Source of the DNA: a virus | Lineage: Duplodnaviria; Heunggongvirae; Uroviricota; Caudoviricetes | Reading direction: 5' to 3' (one strand) | Length of the DNA stretch: 21,839 nt | Virus record (IMG/VR): IMGVR_UViG_2690316311_000003 | Shown here: positions 1 through 21,003 of the stretch, one piece after another | Numbering within the stretch: position 1 is the stretch's first letter | Layout of the letters: every line of letters starts with the position of its first letter | Program-made: the position numbers and the translations under genes | Notes under the pieces: generated by a model | Databases searched by the model: none | What the model was told of the DNA's origin: nothing | The model's input: only the letters and a program-made list of their open reading frames with translations

Positions 1-104
1 CGGAGCTGACCACCATGTTCTGCTACATCGTCGGTGTGAGCAAATGCCTGCGTGATATCCAGACCCACGCGGAGTACATCAACGACAAGGCAGGGTTCTT
101 CTGA
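1..104 (+). CDS. 3' end of an unidentified CDS entering from the left edge
   Basis: Open frame 3 from the window edge to TGA at 102-104 (…AEYINDKAGFF*), GC-rich; followed by a weak hairpin at 112-127 and an A/T tract. Confidence 0.3.
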   Translation, partial: ELTTMFCYIVGVSKCLRDIQTHAEYINDKAGFF

Positions 105-147
105 CGGCGGCGGCACAGGGACGTGCCTTTAAATAATTCTGTACAGA

Positions 148-176
148 TTGCAGACTGGGGGTGAATAGCGTACTAT
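148..176 (+). promoter_or_regulatory. Putative sigma70 promoter for the 210-aa accessory gene
   Basis: TTGCAG (148-153), 17-nt spacer, TACTAT (171-176); lies about 75 nt upstream of the SD GGGAGGA (239-245) and ATG at 250. Confidence 0.4.
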
Positions 177-249
177 TACCTCAAGGGTAAGAAAGCATTT
201 TTAATCTTCCCTTCAAAACGCGTCCTGTAGCCAAACATGGGAGGACGAA

Positions 250-882
250 ATGAGAACAAATACAACAAGAAAAGCGATGCCATACATTATCCCAGAAGCA
301 GATTTCGATAGAAAACTGAACATGTCTGAGAAGAACACTAGTCACACCGAAAGCTACTTAGCGAAAGGTGTGGTTGATTTCGTTCTTCCGGGATTCACAA
401 CACCTTATGGTTATCGCCTTGTAAAATCTTGTAATGGCGATCATTACAGAATGATTACTACCAGCGATACTCCAGAAACGGTGTATGCGGTTAAGTTAAT
501 CTTTCGGGAAGATATCGTCGAAGCCAAAAGAACATGTACGCAGATCATGGTATGGCGTACGCCTAATGTTATTCATGACCGTGCTGTTCATGGTTTGCCT
601 CAGATTTTTTTTCAGTTCTTCCTAGAGCAATATGCGATCGTTGTATCTGATGAGCAACAAACAATCGATGGGAGAAGATTCTGGGAAAGAATGATTTCTT
701 GGGCTATAAACACCCCGGGATATAATGTATACGTTTCAGATGGCTCTGAAGAAGATAGACCTCTTAGCTTCATGACATCATGGGATGATTTCTATAGCCA
801 GTGGGCTGATTTCTGTTGGGGCAGTGATAAAGATGTGCATACCCACAGACTACTGGTTATAAGCAAAGATAAACTGCATTAA
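250..882 (+). CDS. Hypothetical 210-aa cytoplasmic protein; AT-rich accessory (moron) gene of unknown function
   Basis: ATG start with strong SD, about 40% GC against about 52% in neighbouring phage genes, 10 of 14 Arg codons are AGA, own promoter-like element and terminator, opposite strand to the structural operon. No motif recognised. Confidence 0.8.
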   Translation: MRTNTTRKAMPYIIPEADFDRKLNMSEKNTSHTESYLAKGVVDFVLPGFTTPYGYRLVKSCNGDHYRMITTSDTPETVYAVKLIFREDIVEAKRTCTQIMVWRTPNVIHDRAVHGLPQIFFQFFLEQYAIVVSDEQQTIDGRRFWERMISWAINTPGYNVYVSDGSEEDRPLSFMTSWDDFYSQWADFCWGSDKDVHTHRLLVISKDKLH

Positions 883-980: not shown

Positions 981-1142
981 ATGAAAAAAGCATTTGCTGC
1001 ACTGTTCGTTTTGTTGTCTCTGGTAGCTTCAACTCAGGCCTTTGCCGGTCGTTGTCAGCACGACAGCGATACTGCCGCTGACGGCTCCCGCTGCGGTGGG
1101 CGTTCTGCGGATTCCCGCCCGGGCGGCGGTGGCATTCGTTAA
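981..1142 (+). CDS. Small secreted peptide precursor (53 aa): Sec-type signal peptide, then a 31-aa Gly-rich mature peptide with two Cys
   Basis: MKK + hydrophobic core + AFA|G cleavage motif; mature GRCQHDSDTAADGSRCGGRSADSRPGGGGIR. The ORF track's GTG start at 909 would place the signal peptide internally, so ATG 981 is preferred. GC-rich, unlike the adjacent 210-aa gene. Confidence 0.55.
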   Translation: MKKAFAALFVLLSLVASTQAFAGRCQHDSDTAADGSRCGGRSADSRPGGGGIR

Positions 1143-1164
1143 AAACAAGGCCGCGAAAGCGGCC
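1141..1164 (-). terminator. Rho-independent terminator ending the minus-strand structural operon
   Basis: Hairpin GGCCGC-GAAA-GCGGCC (1149-1164); on the minus strand it is followed by TTGTTTTT. Plus-strand side is not T-rich, so it is mainly unidirectional. Confidence 0.65.
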
Positions 1165-1165
1165 T

Positions 1166-1177
1166 GTGACATGTCAC
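1166..1177. repeat. Perfect 12-bp palindrome GTGACATGTCAC (copy 1)
   Basis: Lies between the stop of the 46-aa ORF and the terminator hairpin. Identical copy at 20657-20668; one-mismatch copies at 18392-18403 and 15353-15364. Confidence 0.6.
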
Positions 1178-1184
1178 GCTCACG

Positions 1185-1325
1185 TTATGACAAGCCTATG
1201 TACCCTGCTACACCAGATAATATCAAAATAACTGCAACAGCAAATTCGCCATCGTCAATGATACATTTGCGGTTCATAACGCCAAGTGCAACAAGCGCAA
1301 ACACAACAAGAATAAAAGCAATCAT
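1185..1325 (-). CDS. Small hydrophobic membrane protein (46 aa, two predicted TM helices), not in the ORF track
   Basis: Hand translation: MIAFILVVFALVALGVMNRKCIIDDGEFAVAVILILSGVAGYIGLS*. SD AAGGA 6 nt upstream of ATG, starts 10 nt after the stop of the 824-aa gene, followed by the operon terminator. Confidence 0.5.
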   Translation of the reverse strand: MIAFILVVFALVALGVMNRKCIIDDGEFAVAVILILSGVAGYIGLS

Positions 1326-1334
1326 TTCTCATCC

Positions 1335-3809
1335 TTATTGCGGAGTGACATCCTGTGGTCGCCACCAGTATGTCTGGTTAAACTCTTTCTTCGAACGTTG
1401 CTCCATTTTACGCAAATAACCTGGTGAAAAATACTCCTGCATCTGGTTAAAGATCATGTGATCGAGAGCCGCCTTTAAGTACCAGAGATTCGCACCAGGC
1501 ATCAAACCTTTCCCCAGCTTCACCAGATCACCACCAGTCTGCTCACTCTTCCCTTCCACAGCATTTAACGGTATGCCCTGAGCAATCTTCACTACGTCAT
1601 CAACCAGACCAGCTACCGGGCCAAGCATCGACGCCAGCGCGCCGCTTCCGTACCTAGTGTGATCTGACAATAAAAAGTCACCGTAAAGGCCAAGACCACC
1701 ACCTTTCAGTAGAGCACCAAGCCAGAATTTTGCGGCATCTTCTCCTGTCATCTCTCGAGGATTACGACCAGACGCAAGGTCGTTAAGTTGCTGCGACAAA
1801 GCGCCAAGAATGGTCGTACTGGCAATAAACGTCGCAATATATGCCGCACGCCCACCAGCAGACGGCATACCCATAGCGCGTGACCAGTGACGCATAACAA
1901 CCGAGATAGGGAACGATTTAAACAGGAAAACACTTCTCGTTAATTCACCTTTCCATGTTCCACGCTGAATACCAGAACCGGTTATCAGTTGCTCACGTGC
2001 TCCCGGTGTAATAACAGCCATATCAACTTCTTCAGTTACGGCACCGAGCAGTTTACGCATTGCCTCAAATTTCACGCGTTCAGGCTCACCAAGATGTTTA
2101 ACTGCTGAATCAGGGATACGCATAATGCTTTCCGGTGTCAGCATCGTATTATTACCGTTCCCCCAGTCCTCCTGTTGCGCCAGCTTCCATACGCTCCAGT
2201 CTGTGTCAGTAATCCCTTTACTTTTCAGGATACGAAAATCAGAGTCATCGAGGCTACGAAGGTCTGGTGTCCGTGACACTACTTCTCCCAGGCTTCCCAT
2301 CATGGTTACGCCATAGGCGCGCTTGTGCGCATCTGACCATGCTGTAAGCCCACTGGCACGCATTACCGCCGTTGCCGCCCAACGAGACACAGACGGCCCC
2401 ATATTATCCATCGCCCAGCGGTTAACGCTGCCAAGTAGAGATTCCATCGCCAGGCCAGCGCGGCGCGCCCGCGCAAGCTCAGTACGGTTCGTTGGGTCCA
2501 TAGCTTCAAGCTGGTTGCGAAATAACTGGTTCATTGGAAGGTTGGTAACCTTCGCAGACAGATACATGGTTCCAAGATCAGAGAACGATGACAGCAACGC
2601 GGATCCGAGTCTGCTGGCAACCAGCCAGTTGCGGATATTGTCAGACCATCGCGCGATGTGCGGATTCGCTACAGGCTGTGTTTTTCCGGAAATAAAGTTG
2701 TACAAGTTCTCTGTTTTGTTCGCCAGACGCTCGACGCTACCGGTTTTACTCGGGTTAGCTGTTGCCGTTTCTGCCTTAACCTGATCAAGAAGAGAGCGGA
2801 AAACATGATCGGGGTTTGGGCCATATGTTTCCACCAGCGCAATATCTTTACTGATACCTTCCAGGTGACCGACCATGATTTCCCATAGAGAGCGATCGCC
2901 ATAAAGTTGCTGATATTGCAGATAGGAATCTGCATCTTTGAAATGTATCTGTCGTGATGCATTACCACGGTTAGCACGTACGCCGGAAATTCGCATTCCG
3001 GTATCAGTAAGCTTATTCAGCCCACCAGTAGCGATCGTGTTATAAGCCTCTCCAAGAAATGCAGACAACTCGGCATCGTTCATCAGTTGTCCATCGGCTC
3101 GGGTATAATATTTGCGATCCAGCTTACCTATAACATCGCTAACCCATTTATCTTTTGATACCGCCCCAACCTTTTCCATAGAATGATGTTGAGGGATCCC
3201 CCAGTTTTCGAGATAGCCAATGTCCCCACCAGCATCATTAAACCGGCGGCGCAGTAGATCTGTCACTTCTCTCCACGCCTTAGCACCTTTTCTTGCTTTA
3301 GCATTGCCAGTATTTTGCCCTCGCATTTCATATACCAGGTCACGCACGCCCGCTTCATCTTCAAACAGGCCAAAAAAGCGAGGATCAACTGCTTCAAATG
3401 CCTCCTGCAATTGACTCAATGCATAATCACGAGTGGCTTTTGTTCTGGATTCAACAGAGAGGAAATTCGATTTACCGTCTGCATTAAAAGCAATAGTACG
3501 GTTAAGAGCGCCAAGTTTCCCATCAGCCCCTTGATAGCTATTGATAAATTTATCCAATCTCTGACGTGCGGCTATAGTGAGGGCCACACGACGTTTCTTT
3601 AATGCCGCTTCTCGCTGTAATTCTTCAGATGCCAATTGTGCTGCACGATACAACCGTTCTGATTCGGAAAGTTGTCGCCACGACATCGGGTCATCACGAG
3701 CAATGGAGCGCATATTTCGATAAATGCGGTCTTCAATGTTCTGTATTTCTCGCGCCGTTAACGTGCGCTGCGCCGCCTGCTGGACCGCTTGTATACATTC
3801 CTGTCTCAT
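1335..3809 (-). CDS. Internal virion / ejection protein (824 aa); C-terminal hydrophobic region resembles the C-terminus of T7 gp16
   Basis: Long ORF with SD GAGAGG; helical, FKSF-containing hydrophobic C-terminal segments; last large gene of the structural operon. Confidence 0.8.
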   Translation of the reverse strand: MRQECIQAVQQAAQRTLTAREIQNIEDRIYRNMRSIARDDPMSWRQLSESERLYRAAQLASEELQREAALKKRRVALTIAARQRLDKFINSYQGADGKLGALNRTIAFNADGKSNFLSVESRTKATRDYALSQLQEAFEAVDPRFFGLFEDEAGVRDLVYEMRGQNTGNAKARKGAKAWREVTDLLRRRFNDAGGDIGYLENWGIPQHHSMEKVGAVSKDKWVSDVIGKLDRKYYTRADGQLMNDAELSAFLGEAYNTIATGGLNKLTDTGMRISGVRANRGNASRQIHFKDADSYLQYQQLYGDRSLWEIMVGHLEGISKDIALVETYGPNPDHVFRSLLDQVKAETATANPSKTGSVERLANKTENLYNFISGKTQPVANPHIARWSDNIRNWLVASRLGSALLSSFSDLGTMYLSAKVTNLPMNQLFRNQLEAMDPTNRTELARARRAGLAMESLLGSVNRWAMDNMGPSVSRWAATAVMRASGLTAWSDAHKRAYGVTMMGSLGEVVSRTPDLRSLDDSDFRILKSKGITDTDWSVWKLAQQEDWGNGNNTMLTPESIMRIPDSAVKHLGEPERVKFEAMRKLLGAVTEEVDMAVITPGAREQLITGSGIQRGTWKGELTRSVFLFKSFPISVVMRHWSRAMGMPSAGGRAAYIATFIASTTILGALSQQLNDLASGRNPREMTGEDAAKFWLGALLKGGGLGLYGDFLLSDHTRYGSGALASMLGPVAGLVDDVVKIAQGIPLNAVEGKSEQTGGDLVKLGKGLMPGANLWYLKAALDHMIFNQMQEYFSPGYLRKMEQRSKKEFNQTYWWRPQDVTPQ

Positions 3810-8672: not shown

Positions 8673-9136
8673 TATTTTCTCTCCATGTGAAATCTGTGGA
8701 AATTAAGACCAAGAGCACCATAAGGCGCGGCTTCTTCAAGCCTGAATCCAAGCCAGTGCAGCCATGCTTTGGCAACATGGTTTCGCTCGTCGACGTAGTT
8801 TTCCAGGCGCGGATAAACTGCCAGCATCTGCTGCAATACAGGGCGGCAGTGGCGAAGAAATGTCTTCTGATATTTTTCAATACGGCTGGTTCCTACCAGC
8901 CAGGGCGTACCATTGCCACCGATCATTGACGCCGGAGATACACCAAACATGGTTACCAGTTCTCCGTTCGCGAACCCTGACCAGGCCATAGTCGCAGTGC
9001 GAAGACCAACACGTAGCGCATCTTCGGTAGTCATCAGTGATACTGCATACAGTTCGTCAATATCAGCCTGACGAACATCCGGCAAAATCATCTGAAGATG
9101 CTCTTCGGTAGCGGGAATAATTTTAACGTCGATCAT
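8672..9136 (-). CDS. Hypothetical virion or assembly protein (154 aa), gp13-like by position
   Basis: ORF-track TTG at 9139 replaced by ATG at 9136 (SD GGGGGA, overlaps TGA of upstream gene). Confidence 0.75.
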   Translation of the reverse strand: MIDVKIIPATEEHLQMILPDVRQADIDELYAVSLMTTEDALRVGLRTATMAWSGFANGELVTMFGVSPASMIGGNGTPWLVGTSRIEKYQKTFLRHCRPVLQQMLAVYPRLENYVDERNHVAKAWLHWLGFRLEEAAPYGALGLNFHRFHMERK

Positions 9137-18387: not shown

Positions 18388-18407
18388 CACCGTGGCATGT
18401 CACAAAC

Positions 18408-18477: not shown

Positions 18478-19953
18478 TTAAGCATAAGGGTCATAATCCG
18501 TTATGGCCCTTCCCTGCTGGCTTTGCTGTCCTGGTATATTTATGCGTTTCGAGACCGGGAAAGCAAACGTCAGCAGTAGCGCATCGCCTTTACCAGGAGA
18601 ACGCCCAAGACGCTCTTTGATATCTTCCTTCGGTTCGATAACGATTTTACCGTCCACACGAACTTTGTACTCTGCCGCCGACAGGTCGTCTGCAGTTTCT
18701 TGGTCATCCAGCATGCCGCCCAGCCTCAGCCATGTCTTACATGAGTTGAACATCTCCCCACGCTTGTTAAGCATCTGCGGGTCAGTGGACGCACCGCCGA
18801 ACGGAACAAGTTGCCATGTACGTCCCCAGCCATCACCGATTGACTTCAAACCGGTTCCATAACCGAAGTCGATGAACACCGCGTCAGCCTGATACTGGTC
18901 TTCAAAGTCAGCGATACGCTTCGCCATAATCAGATCGTCGGTGGTCTTGTTACCAGTCCATAGCACCTTACTGTGCAGCCCCTGCCGCAGGTATATCACA
19001 GCGTCATCAACGCCGGAGTATGCCGGGTCAACGCCGATTATCACCGGAGCATGTGCAACCTGCGCAGCGGTTACCACCCGTTTCATTGCCTCGTCAGTAA
19101 GGCCGGTAGGGATAAACTGCAATTCAGATGCATCCGGGAATATGCCGCGCACACGGATTTTAACGAAGTCGCTGTCTTCCCCGTAGTCATCAACCCATTT
19201 CTGCAACTGCTGTTTGTTAGTGCCTTCCACCGTCCGGCTGTCAATCTGCGCAGTTTTCCAGCGGTGTTTATATTTGCGGAAACATTCGCGGAAACGCCCG
19301 GTGTTACGTGTAGGGTTTCCGAATGCCACCCAGATAATCTCAGTGTCTTCGTCCGTCAGCGCACCCTCTGCTACCTCCCACACCAGATCGGCAATGTTGG
19401 ATGCTTCGTCGAATACCACGATGATGCGTTTGCGCTCGTTGTGTAGTCCGGCGAATGCCTCAGTGTTGTGCTCAGACCAGGGGATTGCGTCAGCTCGCCA
19501 CCGCTTGTCGTGCCCAGGGTCATTGCTGTACATCGCGGTAGCGGTACAGGTAAACCAGTCTTTCGTGATAGCAAGGTTCGACCACTTGATAATTTCCGGC
19601 CAAGTCTTCGTTCGTAGCTGGTTGTCGGTGTTGGCGGTCACCACGACCTTACAATCCTCGCAAGTGGACATGCCCCAGTTGATCAGCATTGAGATGAATG
19701 CGGATTTACCAATACCGTGACCAGAAGCACGTGCCAGCATAAGCGGCTGATATCGCGTCTCTGGATTCTGCAGGTGATCACGTATCTCTCGGAACGCATC
19801 GGCCTGCCACTGACGTGGACCGGTGGCATGTGCCAGTTCAGTACCCTCTTCCCCCCACGGGAACGCATAGAGGGCATAGCCAAGCGGATCGTGAGTGAAC
19901 CCTGCAATATCCTCGATTAACTGCTCTTCAGGAGATAACGCTGTATCTGTCAC
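18478..19953 (-). CDS. terL: Terminase large subunit (491 aa)
   Basis: P-loop-like SGHGIGKS and Walker B-like IIVVFDEAS; GTG start overlapping the terS stop (GTGA), the only start that retains the ATPase N-terminus. Confidence 0.9.
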   Translation of the reverse strand: MTDTALSPEEQLIEDIAGFTHDPLGYALYAFPWGEEGTELAHATGPRQWQADAFREIRDHLQNPETRYQPLMLARASGHGIGKSAFISMLINWGMSTCEDCKVVVTANTDNQLRTKTWPEIIKWSNLAITKDWFTCTATAMYSNDPGHDKRWRADAIPWSEHNTEAFAGLHNERKRIIVVFDEASNIADLVWEVAEGALTDEDTEIIWVAFGNPTRNTGRFRECFRKYKHRWKTAQIDSRTVEGTNKQQLQKWVDDYGEDSDFVKIRVRGIFPDASELQFIPTGLTDEAMKRVVTAAQVAHAPVIIGVDPAYSGVDDAVIYLRQGLHSKVLWTGNKTTDDLIMAKRIADFEDQYQADAVFIDFGYGTGLKSIGDGWGRTWQLVPFGGASTDPQMLNKRGEMFNSCKTWLRLGGMLDDQETADDLSAAEYKVRVDGKIVIEPKEDIKERLGRSPGKGDALLLTFAFPVSKRINIPGQQSQQGRAITDYDPYA

Positions 19954-20546
19954 TGATTGCCATCCTGACGTTCTTTCAGTCTCTTCCTGGCTGCCGCTAT
20001 GCGATCAGCAATTGTCACATTCACATTAACATCCAGGCGTTCTTTGAATGCGTTGACGTCGACGTGCTTACCAATCAGTTCGAGGTTCTTCACCTTGTCA
20101 GGCCATTTAATTTTTTTGAGGATTGTCTCTATCGAATCCTCGTTCATGTTCATGATGGTCGATGACAGATCAAAGCCACTAAGCGTAGTGCGCCAGATTT
20201 TCGGCCACTCACGGATTGGTTTAAGGCTCCCATCGTCGTTGAGGATATCGATCACGTCCATCTGGTCGATCTCCACCAGGCGCATGAGAACGTAATCAGC
20301 ACTGACGCGCATTCGTTTGTTGCGCTCCTCCATCAACTCGGCAATCCGTTTTTGAATGCGTTCATCGCGCATCATGACACTGGCTTTAACTGCCGCTGTA
20401 TTTGGGGAGAATCCTGCGTTAATCGCTGCCTGAGTCTGGTTTTCAGGCGTTTTGATGTATGACTGGCAATAAGCCTCCTGCATTGCTGTTAGTGGCTTAA
20501 ATTGCGTTGATTTGCGTTTATAGGTTTTAGGTTCAGCAGGAATCAT
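19950..20546 (-). CDS. terS: Terminase small subunit (198 aa from ATG 20546; exact start uncertain)
   Basis: Motif LTAMQEAYCQSYIKTPENQTQAAINAGFSPNTAAVKAS matches the Terminase_2-type small-subunit HTH region. The ORF-track TTG start at 20624 lies upstream of an intrinsic terminator and its N-terminal 26 aa look non-coding. Confidence 0.8.
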   Translation of the reverse strand: MIPAEPKTYKRKSTQFKPLTAMQEAYCQSYIKTPENQTQAAINAGFSPNTAAVKASVMMRDERIQKRIAELMEERNKRMRVSADYVLMRLVEIDQMDVIDILNDDGSLKPIREWPKIWRTTLSGFDLSSTIMNMNEDSIETILKKIKWPDKVKNLELIGKHVDVNAFKERLDVNVNVTIADRIAAARKRLKERQDGNQ

Positions 20547-20552
20547 AACCAC

Positions 20553-20585
20553 CGTGGTAATAGTTACCGTTGTGGTAATAGTACC
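20553..20585. repeat. Tandem direct repeat, two copies of about 16 bp containing GTGGTAATAGT, period 18 bp
   Basis: Core at 20554-20564 and 20572-20582, between the upstream terminator and the terS start codon. Confidence 0.5.
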
Positions 20586-20588
20586 ATG

Positions 20589-20615
20589 CAAAATAAAGCC
20601 GCCATAGTTGGCGGC
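20589..20615 (-). terminator. Rho-independent terminator immediately upstream of terS
   Basis: GCCGCCA-4 nt-TGGCGGC (20598-20615); on the minus strand followed by TTTATTTTG. Confidence 0.75.
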
Positions 20616-20656
20616 AGTATTCAAAACACATCAAATTCATCATGCATAATCCACTC

Positions 20657-20668
20657 GTGACATGTCAC
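20657..20668. repeat. Perfect 12-bp palindrome GTGACATGTCAC (copy 2), overlapping the stop codon of the 112-aa gene
   Basis: Identical to 1166-1177; sits 42 nt upstream of the terminator at 20589-20615. Confidence 0.6.
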
Positions 20669-21003
20669 ACTATTAATTTCGTTTCATGCCAGCCTTTAGT
20701 CACCCAGCATTGCGAGTCACCATTGCACGGGCATGAATTAACTGGAACTCTCTCGCCGCACTTACCGCAACGTTTTCTGCTGATCGATTTTATACGCCCG
20801 CGCACGCGTGCATCATCCTGGCGGATCAGTAACGCTATATACTCACCAAATTCGTAAGGCGCACGCCCGGGGCGACGCGTGGCACAGTTACGCTCCAGCA
20901 TTTCAATTTCCTGAGCATCAAGCACAATTTCCAGCTTACGCACACCAGATGCAGCTTGTCTGGCTCTCTGAGCGGCTTTGCGCTCTGCTGCTGATTTAGC
21001 CAT
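20665..21003 (-). CDS. Small basic protein with C-terminal Cys-rich zinc-ribbon-like motif (112 aa), putative DNA-binding regulator
   Basis: ATG at 21003 with SD AAGGT 8 nt upstream (ORF-track TTG at 21006); C-terminal CGKCG…CPCNGDSQC; Arg/Lys-rich N-terminus. Confidence 0.7.
   Translation of the reverse strand: MAKSAAERKAAQRARQAASGVRKLEIVLDAQEIEMLERNCATRRPGRAPYEFGEYIALLIRQDDARVRGRIKSISRKRCGKCGERVPVNSCPCNGDSQCWVTKGWHETKLIV

Follow-up and report, generated by a model that had tools for sequence, protein, structure and literature searches.

The locus in front of terS

The window, i.e. the entire stretch of 21,839 nucleotides that was analysed (IMG/VR record IMGVR_UViG_2690316311_000003), is a Uetakevirus prophage, an epsilon15/phiV10-like podovirus. 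Over 10,360 overlapping bases it is identical to a prophage of Escherichia coli 2015C-4944 (100% identity, 0 mismatches), named the source prophage below. The region upstream of the small terminase gene, terS, shares 99.3% identity with Escherichia phage TL-2011b and 97–98% identity with phiV10 and other Uetakeviruses. The 241-bp region was found in 503 of 5426 complete E. coli genomes (~9%). The 175 nt upstream of terS were compared in about 30 distinct relatives, sampled from Escherichia, Salmonella, Citrobacter, Klebsiella, Kluyvera, Erwinia, Scandinavium, Pseudescherichia and others, and 20 lineages are represented in the alignment.

All features studied belong to the gene strand, here the minus strand (Table 1). 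In 5′ to 3′ direction, the end of a 113-aa gene is followed by the palindrome GTGACATGTCAC, an 8-codon gene remnant, a hairpin, its T-run TTTATTTTG, a −10 element with two operators, and terS. The sequence after the T-run reads CATGG TACTATTACCAC AAC GGTA ACTATTACCAC GGT GGTT ATG, and the ATG at 20546 starts terS. The first-pass annotation had described the hairpin and the repeats correctly, but omitted both the minus strand and the inverted-repeat nature of the repeat units.

Table 1. Features at the terS boundary and further predicted operators, numbered from the first base of the window
Feature	Position	Strand	Basis
Further Rep operator (predicted), ATTACC-TCAAG-GGTAAG, 1 mismatch	175..191	.	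before plus-strand ORF 250–882
Further Rep operator (predicted), ATTACC-TTTCA-GGTAAT, perfect	17403..17419	.	before portal/head unit; ortholog of the epsilon15 repressor site 2931–2947
terS (small terminase, Terminase_2), 198 codons	19950..20546	-	Pfam PF03592, E = 1e-29; TL-2011b start
Operator O2 (predicted), ATTACC-ACGGT-GGTTAT, 1 mismatch	20545..20561	.	motif; kept in most lineages
Shine-Dalgarno-like GGTGG for terS	20549..20553	-	read from sequence and alignment
Operator O1 (predicted), ATTACC-ACAAC-GGTAAC, 1 mismatch	20563..20579	.	motif; ortholog of epsilon15 protein_bind 12–27
Extended −10 element TGG-TACTAT (predicted)	20578..20586	-	TG 20586–20585, hexamer 20583–20578; 20-lineage conservation
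Intrinsic (rho-independent) terminator	20589..20615	-	terminator scan, fold, epsilon15/phiV10 annotation
8-codon cargo-gene remnant, ATG CAT GAT GAA TTT GAT GTG TTT TGA	20621..20647	-	3′-end homology to full genes of relatives
Perfect 12-bp palindrome GTGACATGTCAC	20657..20668	.	overlaps the regulator stop codon
Putative transcriptional regulator, 112/113 aa, last early-right gene	20665..21003	-	homologue of epsilon15 gp49 / phiV10 p55; PHROG 536

The upstream regulator gene and the palindrome

The product of the last early-right gene matches PHROG 536, annotated as 'transcriptional regulator' (E = 1.6e-54). No sequence match was obtained in Pfam, NCBIfam or the PDB. The protein has a strand-helix-helix region at its N-terminus and a Cys cluster at its C-terminus, and its AlphaFold model is of low confidence (pLDDT 64). 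Among the 120 of 726 matches listed, the homologues are at least 77% identical and all named 'hypothetical'. The stop codon of the gene, at 20667–20665, is overlapped by the palindrome GTGACATGTCAC.

Exactly three copies of GTGACATGTCAC are present in the records of epsilon15 and SPC32H. They occupy the same three positions in phiV10, where the third was read from the near-identical window, as the linear phiV10 record breaks there. Each copy adjoins an intrinsic terminator that closes a unit transcribed rightward; one lies upstream of terS, another follows terL and another the last structural gene. The window copy after terL carries one mismatch. The palindrome is invariant, while the stems of the neighbouring terminators show compensatory substitutions. 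Its distance to the terminator or to terS ranges from ~20 nt to >400 nt among the relatives because cargo genes are inserted between.

The cargo slot and the terminator hairpin

What lies between the 113-aa gene and terS differs among the relatives; this slot has four alternative contents. The first is an 85-aa gene of PHROG 2100, a family of unknown function, with a consensus LexA box ahead of it and the hairpin behind it (L005, L010 and L016). A different gene of ~70 aa, again followed by the hairpin, occupies the slot in L162. The third content is a umuD-like gene without a hairpin. The fourth consists of remnants only, followed by the hairpin, as in the window. The LexA-box-preceded 85-aa gene of the Klebsiella and Citrobacter relatives was considered as a homologue of the SPC32H antirepressor gene ant and rejected (E = 16).

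The 3′ end of the remnant (..HDEFDVF*) is homologous to the gene ends in L162 (..YDEFDGL*), L005 (..DEFKLE*) and L010, and in these three lineages the hairpin follows the full-length gene directly. Judged by this homology, the remnant of the window is the 3′ end of an L162-type gene. The hairpin is, on the same comparative grounds, the putative terminator of a moron-like cargo cassette, now closing the early-right unit at this locus.

The hairpin, GCCGCCA-ACTA-TGGCGGC at 20615–20598, consists of a 7-bp stem (20609–20615 / 20598–20604), 6 of whose pairs are GC, and a 4-nt loop, ACTA. The T-run at 20597–20589 follows straight after the stem. Its folding energy is −15.8 kcal/mol (z = −4.4), a value that 200 shuffled versions all failed to reach. 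Termination is expected in one direction only, the plus strand having no T-run after the stem. In relatives with a full cargo gene, no more than ~10 nt separate its stop codon from the hairpin; the hairpin lies 3′-terminal in the unit, on the strand that is transcribed. The orthologous hairpins are annotated as rho-independent terminators in epsilon15 (39646–39672) and phiV10. Compensatory substitutions were not seen in the terS hairpin among the relatives because it is almost invariant. The hairpin is a predicted intrinsic terminator of the ordinary kind, closing the upstream, early-right unit. A strong terminator about 40 nt before terS had been reported in the first-pass annotation, and a textbook hairpin was confirmed there, with 43 nt from the end of the T-run to the ATG.

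Five lineages (L006, L009, L011, L167 and L168) harbor no terminator at this position. In the same five, the umuD-like gene ends ~20 nt before the promoter/operator module. In phiV10, a terminator with a Rep-type operator 10–15 nt downstream recurs at 32014, 33111 and 35069, suggesting a general insulation of transcription units in these genomes.

The start codon of terS

The small terminase is annotated in two forms. A short TerS is given for TL-2011b, epsilon15 and SPC32H, a long form of 224 aa for phiV10, PAT1 and E. coli 2015C-4944 (PGAP). The frame of the window is open from TTG 20624, in accordance with the long starts, and the hairpin and the repeats might then be part of the coding sequence of a 224-aa TerS. 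Such a coding role is scarcely credible. Of 19 relatives, nine have the frame closed by stops 1–13 codons ahead of the conserved ATG, and indels of 1 nt and 2 nt between O1 and O2 break the upstream reading frame. The conserved TerS begins with M-P-A/K in all lineages, and the Pfam domain begins at residue 19 of the short form. On the basis of the in-frame stops and the frame-shifting indels, the coding extension of terS was rejected; the 224-aa annotation is probably wrong.

Relatives keep GGTGG, or the motif with one base changed, 5 nt ahead of their conserved ATG. All 71 matching relatives among the loci fetched have ATG ATG at the start position. In the window, the codon aligned with the conserved ATG is ATT; therefore the preceding in-frame ATG (20546) must be used.

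A predicted extended −10 promoter downstream of the terminator

A putative extended −10 element, with TG one base before a TAnnnT hexamer, is located between the T-run and terS. The consensus TGnTAnTAT is present in all 20 aligned lineages. L156 has TACCAT; otherwise only the 'n' positions vary. The element is also kept in the five lineages without the terminator. Thus, the promoter/operator module travels with terS and the terminator with the upstream content. A −35 element was not found for the terS promoter: its position lies inside the hairpin in the window and in unrelated sequence in the hairpin-less lineages. A two-hexamer promoter scan of the window did not report the terS promoter because of this missing −35 element.

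The transcription start is predicted at ~20571. O1 overlaps the −10 element by 2 bp, with the hexamer ending in the 'AT' of ATTACC, and spans ~−8 to +9 of the predicted promoter. This is the classical repressing position for an operator. The same register of hexamer and operator is found at promoters that have good −35 boxes at exactly 17 bp: at PL (TTGACA-17-AATTAT in phiV10, TTGACA-17-GATTAT in epsilon15), at the p45 promoter (TTGATT-17-TTTAAT) and at the window operator 175–191, which is preceded by TACTAT (TTGCAG-17-TACTAT). The gene terS is probably transcribed from its own Rep-controlled promoter, as predicted from these conserved elements.

One option of the first-pass annotation was that expression of the packaging genes needs terminator read-through or antitermination. 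In a model of this kind, terS has no promoter of its own. Polymerase of the early-right unit would become terminator-resistant, e.g. by the 113-aa regulator and possibly via GTGACATGTCAC. The requirement is not supported, given the conserved −10 element downstream of the terminator and the module retained in the terminator-less lineages. The regulator gene is placed directly upstream of the late genes, like lambda Q, but its product has no match to antiterminator families in Pfam or NCBIfam. The invariant GTGACATGTCAC stands beside three terminators on the rightward transcription path, the one at terS included, but at the widely varying distance given above. A weak promoter-like match, GTGACA-18-CATGAT, exists upstream of the hairpin. 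However, a repressor operator at this place makes most sense with local initiation, and the conserved TGnTAnTAT would be left unaccounted for. A module of the Q type (pR′-tR′) was likewise not recognized at the locus, the upstream segment being the variable cargo slot. Read-through as the route to terS expression is considered unlikely; some read-through at the terminator may occur in addition to transcription from the local promoter.

The repeats as probable palindromic operators

A pattern search located exactly two copies of the 11-mer ACTATTACCAC (plus-strand GTGGTAATAGT), at 20572–20582 and 20554–20564, with a period of 18. With at most one mismatch, the whole window contains three matches versus 0.19 expected. 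The two full 18-bp units are identical in 14 of 18 positions. Tandem Repeats Finder and a second repeat search did not report the two-copy repeat because just two short copies exist. Each unit is in itself an inverted repeat, ATTACC-N5-GGTAAC in O1 and ATTACC-N5-GGTTAT in O2, both one mismatch away from the 17-bp palindrome ATTACC-N5-GGTAAT. O2 overlaps the Shine-Dalgarno sequence GGTGG (20553–20549) and the first two bases of the terS ATG. The two 18-bp tandem repeats described earlier as overlapping the ribosome-binding region in front of terS are thereby verified.

In the 20-lineage alignment, the arms of O1 are nearly invariant, and its 5-nt spacer is freely variable. O2 is weaker across the relatives, ATTAC(C/T)-N5-GGT(A/T)A(C/T); the Shine-Dalgarno sequence lies in its spacer, and its right arm reaches up to the ATG. 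Among the lineages, the O1–O2 gap differs by 0, +1 or +2 nt. Three Klebsiella/Kluyvera lineages (L005, L006 and L016) and SPC32H have a degenerate O2; the tandem layout is therefore not essential everywhere. The conserved core in the relatives is TGnTAnTAT plus ATTACC-N5-GGTAAT, and not the direct repeat as such.

Invariant arms around a variable spacer are typical of protein-recognised DNA. An action of the repeats at the RNA level was considered as well. As leader hairpins (AUUACC-N5-GGUAAY) they could sequester the ribosome-binding site or rival the terminator, resulting in translational control or attenuation. In the predicted fold, GGUAA-CUA-UUACC and its flanks can pair, and the fold of the 141-nt region is somewhat more stable than that of shuffled sequences (z = −2.7). 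The stems are, however, short and AU-rich, and covariation is not seen in the invariant arms. Sequence downstream of a terminator cannot prevent the terminator from forming, and identical palindromes are also found away from ribosome-binding sites. Control by such RNA structures is highly improbable, and an attenuator or leader structure was rejected on the weak stems, the invariant arms and the lack of covariation. The Rfam search of the window identified no family at the region; the search returned only a tRNA at another place in the window and an rseX match below threshold (28.5 bits versus a gathering score of 50). A known RNA family or riboswitch was rejected on this result.

Distribution of the motif and the cognate repressor

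The palindrome ATTACC-N5-GGTAAT, with at most one mismatch, occurs four times in the window versus 0.03 expected. Nine sites were counted in phiV10, 11 in epsilon15 and 12 in SPC32H, versus ~0.1 expected per genome. In epsilon15, the repressor gene is flanked by site clusters (32478, 32554 and 32616 on one side; 33340 and 33357 on the other). The motif likewise clusters around the repressor gene in phiV10 and SPC32H. In the source genome L172 (E. coli 2015C-4944), sites at 1948 and 2660 flank rep (2021–2605). Further sites precede the portal/head, tail-fibre, lysis cassette and replication-region units. Seven motif sites are labelled 'protein_bind, repressor, lysogeny' in the epsilon15 RefSeq entry (NC_004775.2); one of them, 12–27, is located before terS and aligns with O1. 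Neither motif string was found in the literature searched, and the ZX5 phage paper offers no operator or promoter detail.

The rep gene lies outside the window and is encoded by the identical prophage of E. coli 2015C-4944. The Rep protein of the source prophage, WP_000836290.1, is 100% identical to phiV10 p40. Both share 42% identity over the full length with the SPC32H Rep and match the structure of the latter (PDB 5D50, E = 4e-42). According to a secondary source, the SPC32H Rep acts as a tetramer on palindromic sites, a pair of N-terminal domains reads each palindrome, and a single tetramer is enough for repression (PMC9638917). Two abutting palindromes would fit one Rep tetramer. The motif, its clustering at the repressor gene, the annotation of the ortholog and the cognate Rep in the source prophage all point to Rep operators. 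A regulator bound at the repeats, one of the options of the first-pass annotation, gains support from the dispersed motif and the repressor-site annotation in epsilon15. The repeats are most likely the operators O1 and O2 of the prophage repressor Rep, and binding of Rep at the terS site would follow from the database annotation and the logic of the motif.

A terminase-binding or packaging-related site had been offered as the other option. The repeats would then be TerS recognition elements comparable to the R sites of lambda cosB or to SPP1 pacL. They adjoin terS, and TerS belongs to the Terminase_2 family, as does SPP1 G1P, which reportedly binds repeats around its own promoter. However, the 9–12 sites per genome are dispersed, densest around the repressor gene and otherwise placed before tail-fibre, lysis and replication units; the elements are thus not specific to a packaging-initiation region, and their spread suits an operator rather than a unique pac site. 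Several phage records begin at or near the repeats, but these starts look conventional: epsilon15 and SPC32H share the base just after the T-run, while phiV10 starts right after the regulator stop. More distant TerS homologues in other phage types have no such motif upstream. Among the upstream regions of ~70 more distant terS homologues, the motif was absent except in Samsonia L019, which has an operator and TGGTATGAT in a different arrangement, and in the Pseudomonas prophage L018, which has a partial palindrome around the ribosome-binding site. The packaging site lacks support and is very unlikely; the pac/TerS site was rejected on the genome-wide distribution of the motif.

Proposed regulation of terS

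What the analysis established directly is how the hairpin, the −10 element and the operators are built and conserved, together with the genome-wide spread of the motif and the cognate rep gene of the source genome. A terminator followed by a Rep-controlled extended −10 promoter with O1 and O2 before terS is the likely arrangement predicted from them. The region would represent the boundary of two transcription units in a Uetakevirus prophage. The hairpin would end early-right transcription and, in relatives, also that of the small cargo gene just upstream. Directly downstream of the hairpin, a sigma-70 extended −10 promoter (TGG TACTAT, no −35) would drive terS. Rep, a member of the epsilon15 gp38 / SPC32H Rep family, would bind to the abutting O1 and O2. 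O1 would cover the promoter from ~−8 to +9, and O2 would occupy the DNA of the leader, ribosome-binding site and start codon. Within the Rep tetramer, each pair of DNA-binding domains would read one palindrome. In the lysogen, Rep on O1 and O2 would block initiation and may also stop polymerase leaking past the terminator. Inactivation of Rep by an antirepressor would allow terS and terL to be transcribed from their own promoter, rendering read-through unneeded. Binding of Rep at O1 and O2, the activity of the promoter, its start site and the occupancy by one tetramer are what this model would entail.

If Rep released every unit simultaneously, this model would not account for the 'late' timing of terS.

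The presence of GTGACATGTCAC beside the terS terminator and two others leaves room for an extra layer of control. The three modules of GTGACATGTCAC and terminator might let some factor modulate termination or read-through along the late region, atop the control by Rep, and the hairpin before terS would then be more than a plain terminator. This is a doubtful proposal. The factor would perhaps be the 113-aa protein with its strand-helix-helix region and Cys cluster. If true, the GTGACATGTCAC module would be an undescribed DNA-site-linked device for termination or antitermination in epsilon15-like phages.

Implications

The annotations of terS in phiV10 and in E. coli (PGAP) should be corrected, as a TTG start places the terminator, the promoter and both operators inside the 'coding' sequence. 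Prophages of the epsilon15 type probably silence the packaging, head, tail-fibre and lysis units by direct binding of the repressor at each unit. Each unit would in addition be insulated by an upstream terminator and not rely on a regulatory cascade alone. This knowledge may be useful for the engineering of reporter phages of the phiV10/SPN1S type and for the prediction of leaky prophage genes in lysogens; it does not represent a new principle.

Comparison with known systems

The element is real but ordinary, as its ortholog is already annotated in epsilon15 (NC_004775.2). The first-pass annotation had found a real feature and missed the known phage group in which it was annotated. In epsilon15, the order of regulator gene, GTGACATGTCAC, hairpin, TGnTACTAT, ATTACC-N5-GGTAAT and terS is the same, and the hairpin is identical except for one base. 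O1 of the window has GGTAAC where epsilon15 has GGTAAT. O2 has one mismatch in the window and two in epsilon15, and the window reads as a clean tandem repeat because of this better match. The spacer between palindrome and hairpin also differs, the gene remnant of the window being unlike that of epsilon15.

The Rep/Ant switch of SPC32H employs a full-length homologue of the source Rep, and the same operator motif is found at the same places, terS included. Differences are the degenerate O2 and the location of the small ant gene elsewhere in the SPC32H genome.

Terminators and repeated sites directly before the first late or packaging gene are familiar from lambda pR′-tR′ with Q, lambda cosB and SPP1 pacL. 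In contrast to these, no Q-family protein was found in Pfam searches, the promoter lies downstream of the terminator and the motif is not specific to terS.

In phage P1 and mycobacteriophage L5, one repressor, C1 and gp71 (acting on stoperators), respectively, serves many scattered sites, including those of morphogenesis, packaging and lysis units. The dispersed operators resemble those of the Uetakevirus Rep, whereas proteins and motifs are unrelated. The stoperators of L5 are asymmetric and act on elongation; the Uetakevirus sites are symmetric and overlap promoters.

Translational start of terS

The second codon of terS in the window is ATT, and translation must therefore begin at the preceding ATG, located only 2 nt past the Shine-Dalgarno-like GGTGG. 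Each of the 71 matching relatives in the set of retrieved loci carries an ATG at this codon position (GGTGGTTATGATGCC), which lines up with the start conserved among other TerS proteins of Uetakevirus. The 241-bp region of the window recurs at 100% identity in five complete genomes of E. coli. In RefSeq/PGAP and in the phiV10 record, terS is called from a TTG 78 nt upstream, an annotation that makes the terminator, promoter and operators coding sequence. The comparative sequence data argue for the short form of terS.

Coordinates of the features
Feature	Sequence	Position	Strand	Remark
terS codon 2 (ATT)	window	20541-20543	-	
terS, long annotation	window	19950-20624	-	
terS, long annotation	E. 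coli 2015C-4944 prophage (L172)	9097-9771		
terS, long annotation	phiV10 (L169)	41-715		
GTGACATGTCAC	window	20657-20668; 18392-18403; 1166-1177		second copy with 1 mismatch
GTGACATGTCAC	epsilon15 (L170)	39612; 2142; 19517		
GTGACATGTCAC	SPC32H (L171)	38629; 2145; 19634		
GTGACATGTCAC	phiV10 (L169)	2262; 19493		
Cargo slot	L005 (related locus)	1100-1420		
Cargo slot	L006 (related locus)	1040-1440		
Cargo slot	L162 (related locus)	1193-1426		
Cargo remnant	window	20621-20647	-	8 codons
Predicted Rep operator	window	17403-17419		perfect match; before portal/head unit
Predicted Rep operator	window	175-191		1 mismatch; before plus-strand ORF 250-882
CATATGTGGTT	window	17352-17362	-	
CATATGTGGTT	phiV10 (L169)	3308, 20921, 24739, 35116		
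CATATGTGGTT	epsilon15 (L170)	2988, 24751, 35953		
tRNA gene	window	17741-17814	+	annotated tRNA-Arg in identical E. coli prophage

Palindrome and cargo slot upstream of terS

A pattern search of the window, epsilon15, SPC32H and phiV10 located the perfect 12-bp palindrome GTGACATGTCAC at three positions per Uetakevirus genome; the third position of phiV10, where its linear record breaks, was taken from the nearly identical window. Every copy directly adjoins an intrinsic terminator that closes a rightward transcription unit at its 3' end. The stems of these terminators vary by compensatory changes, whereas the palindrome stays invariant. The string had no match in the literature searched.

Between the putative 113-aa regulator gene and terS lies a slot that is a hotspot for cargo genes. 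Among the related loci compared, this slot holds an 85-aa gene (PHROG 2100), a umuD-like gene or another small gene. A LexA box precedes both the 85-aa and the umuD-like gene. Just a remnant is left in the slot of the window.

Further operators and a second conserved motif

Two further Rep operators, sites of the prophage repressor, are predicted in the window. The ORF behind the imperfect one is the positional equivalent of the phiV10 Bro-N gene, and this operator is preceded by TACTAT in the register also seen at terS. Another conserved motif, CATATGTGGTT, occurs approximately 35-45 nt downstream of several predicted Rep operators, preceding portal, tail-fibre, lysis and replication-region units; in the comparison of motif positions it was absent before terS. 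It may represent a different class of promoter or activator element. The tRNA gene of the window separates the terL unit from the portal unit and, unlike the late genes, is encoded on the plus strand.

A Samsonia relative

The Samsonia erythrinae prophage (L019) is a more distant relative, with a TerS 66% identical. Its region at approximately 1385-1460 contains ATTACC-GCGCC-GGTAAT upstream of TGGTATGAT, and two additional ATTACC half-sites are located ahead of terS. Neither a terminator nor the 12-bp palindrome was found upstream of terS in this prophage. L019 would therefore retain the repressor control of terS, in a geometry different from that of the window.
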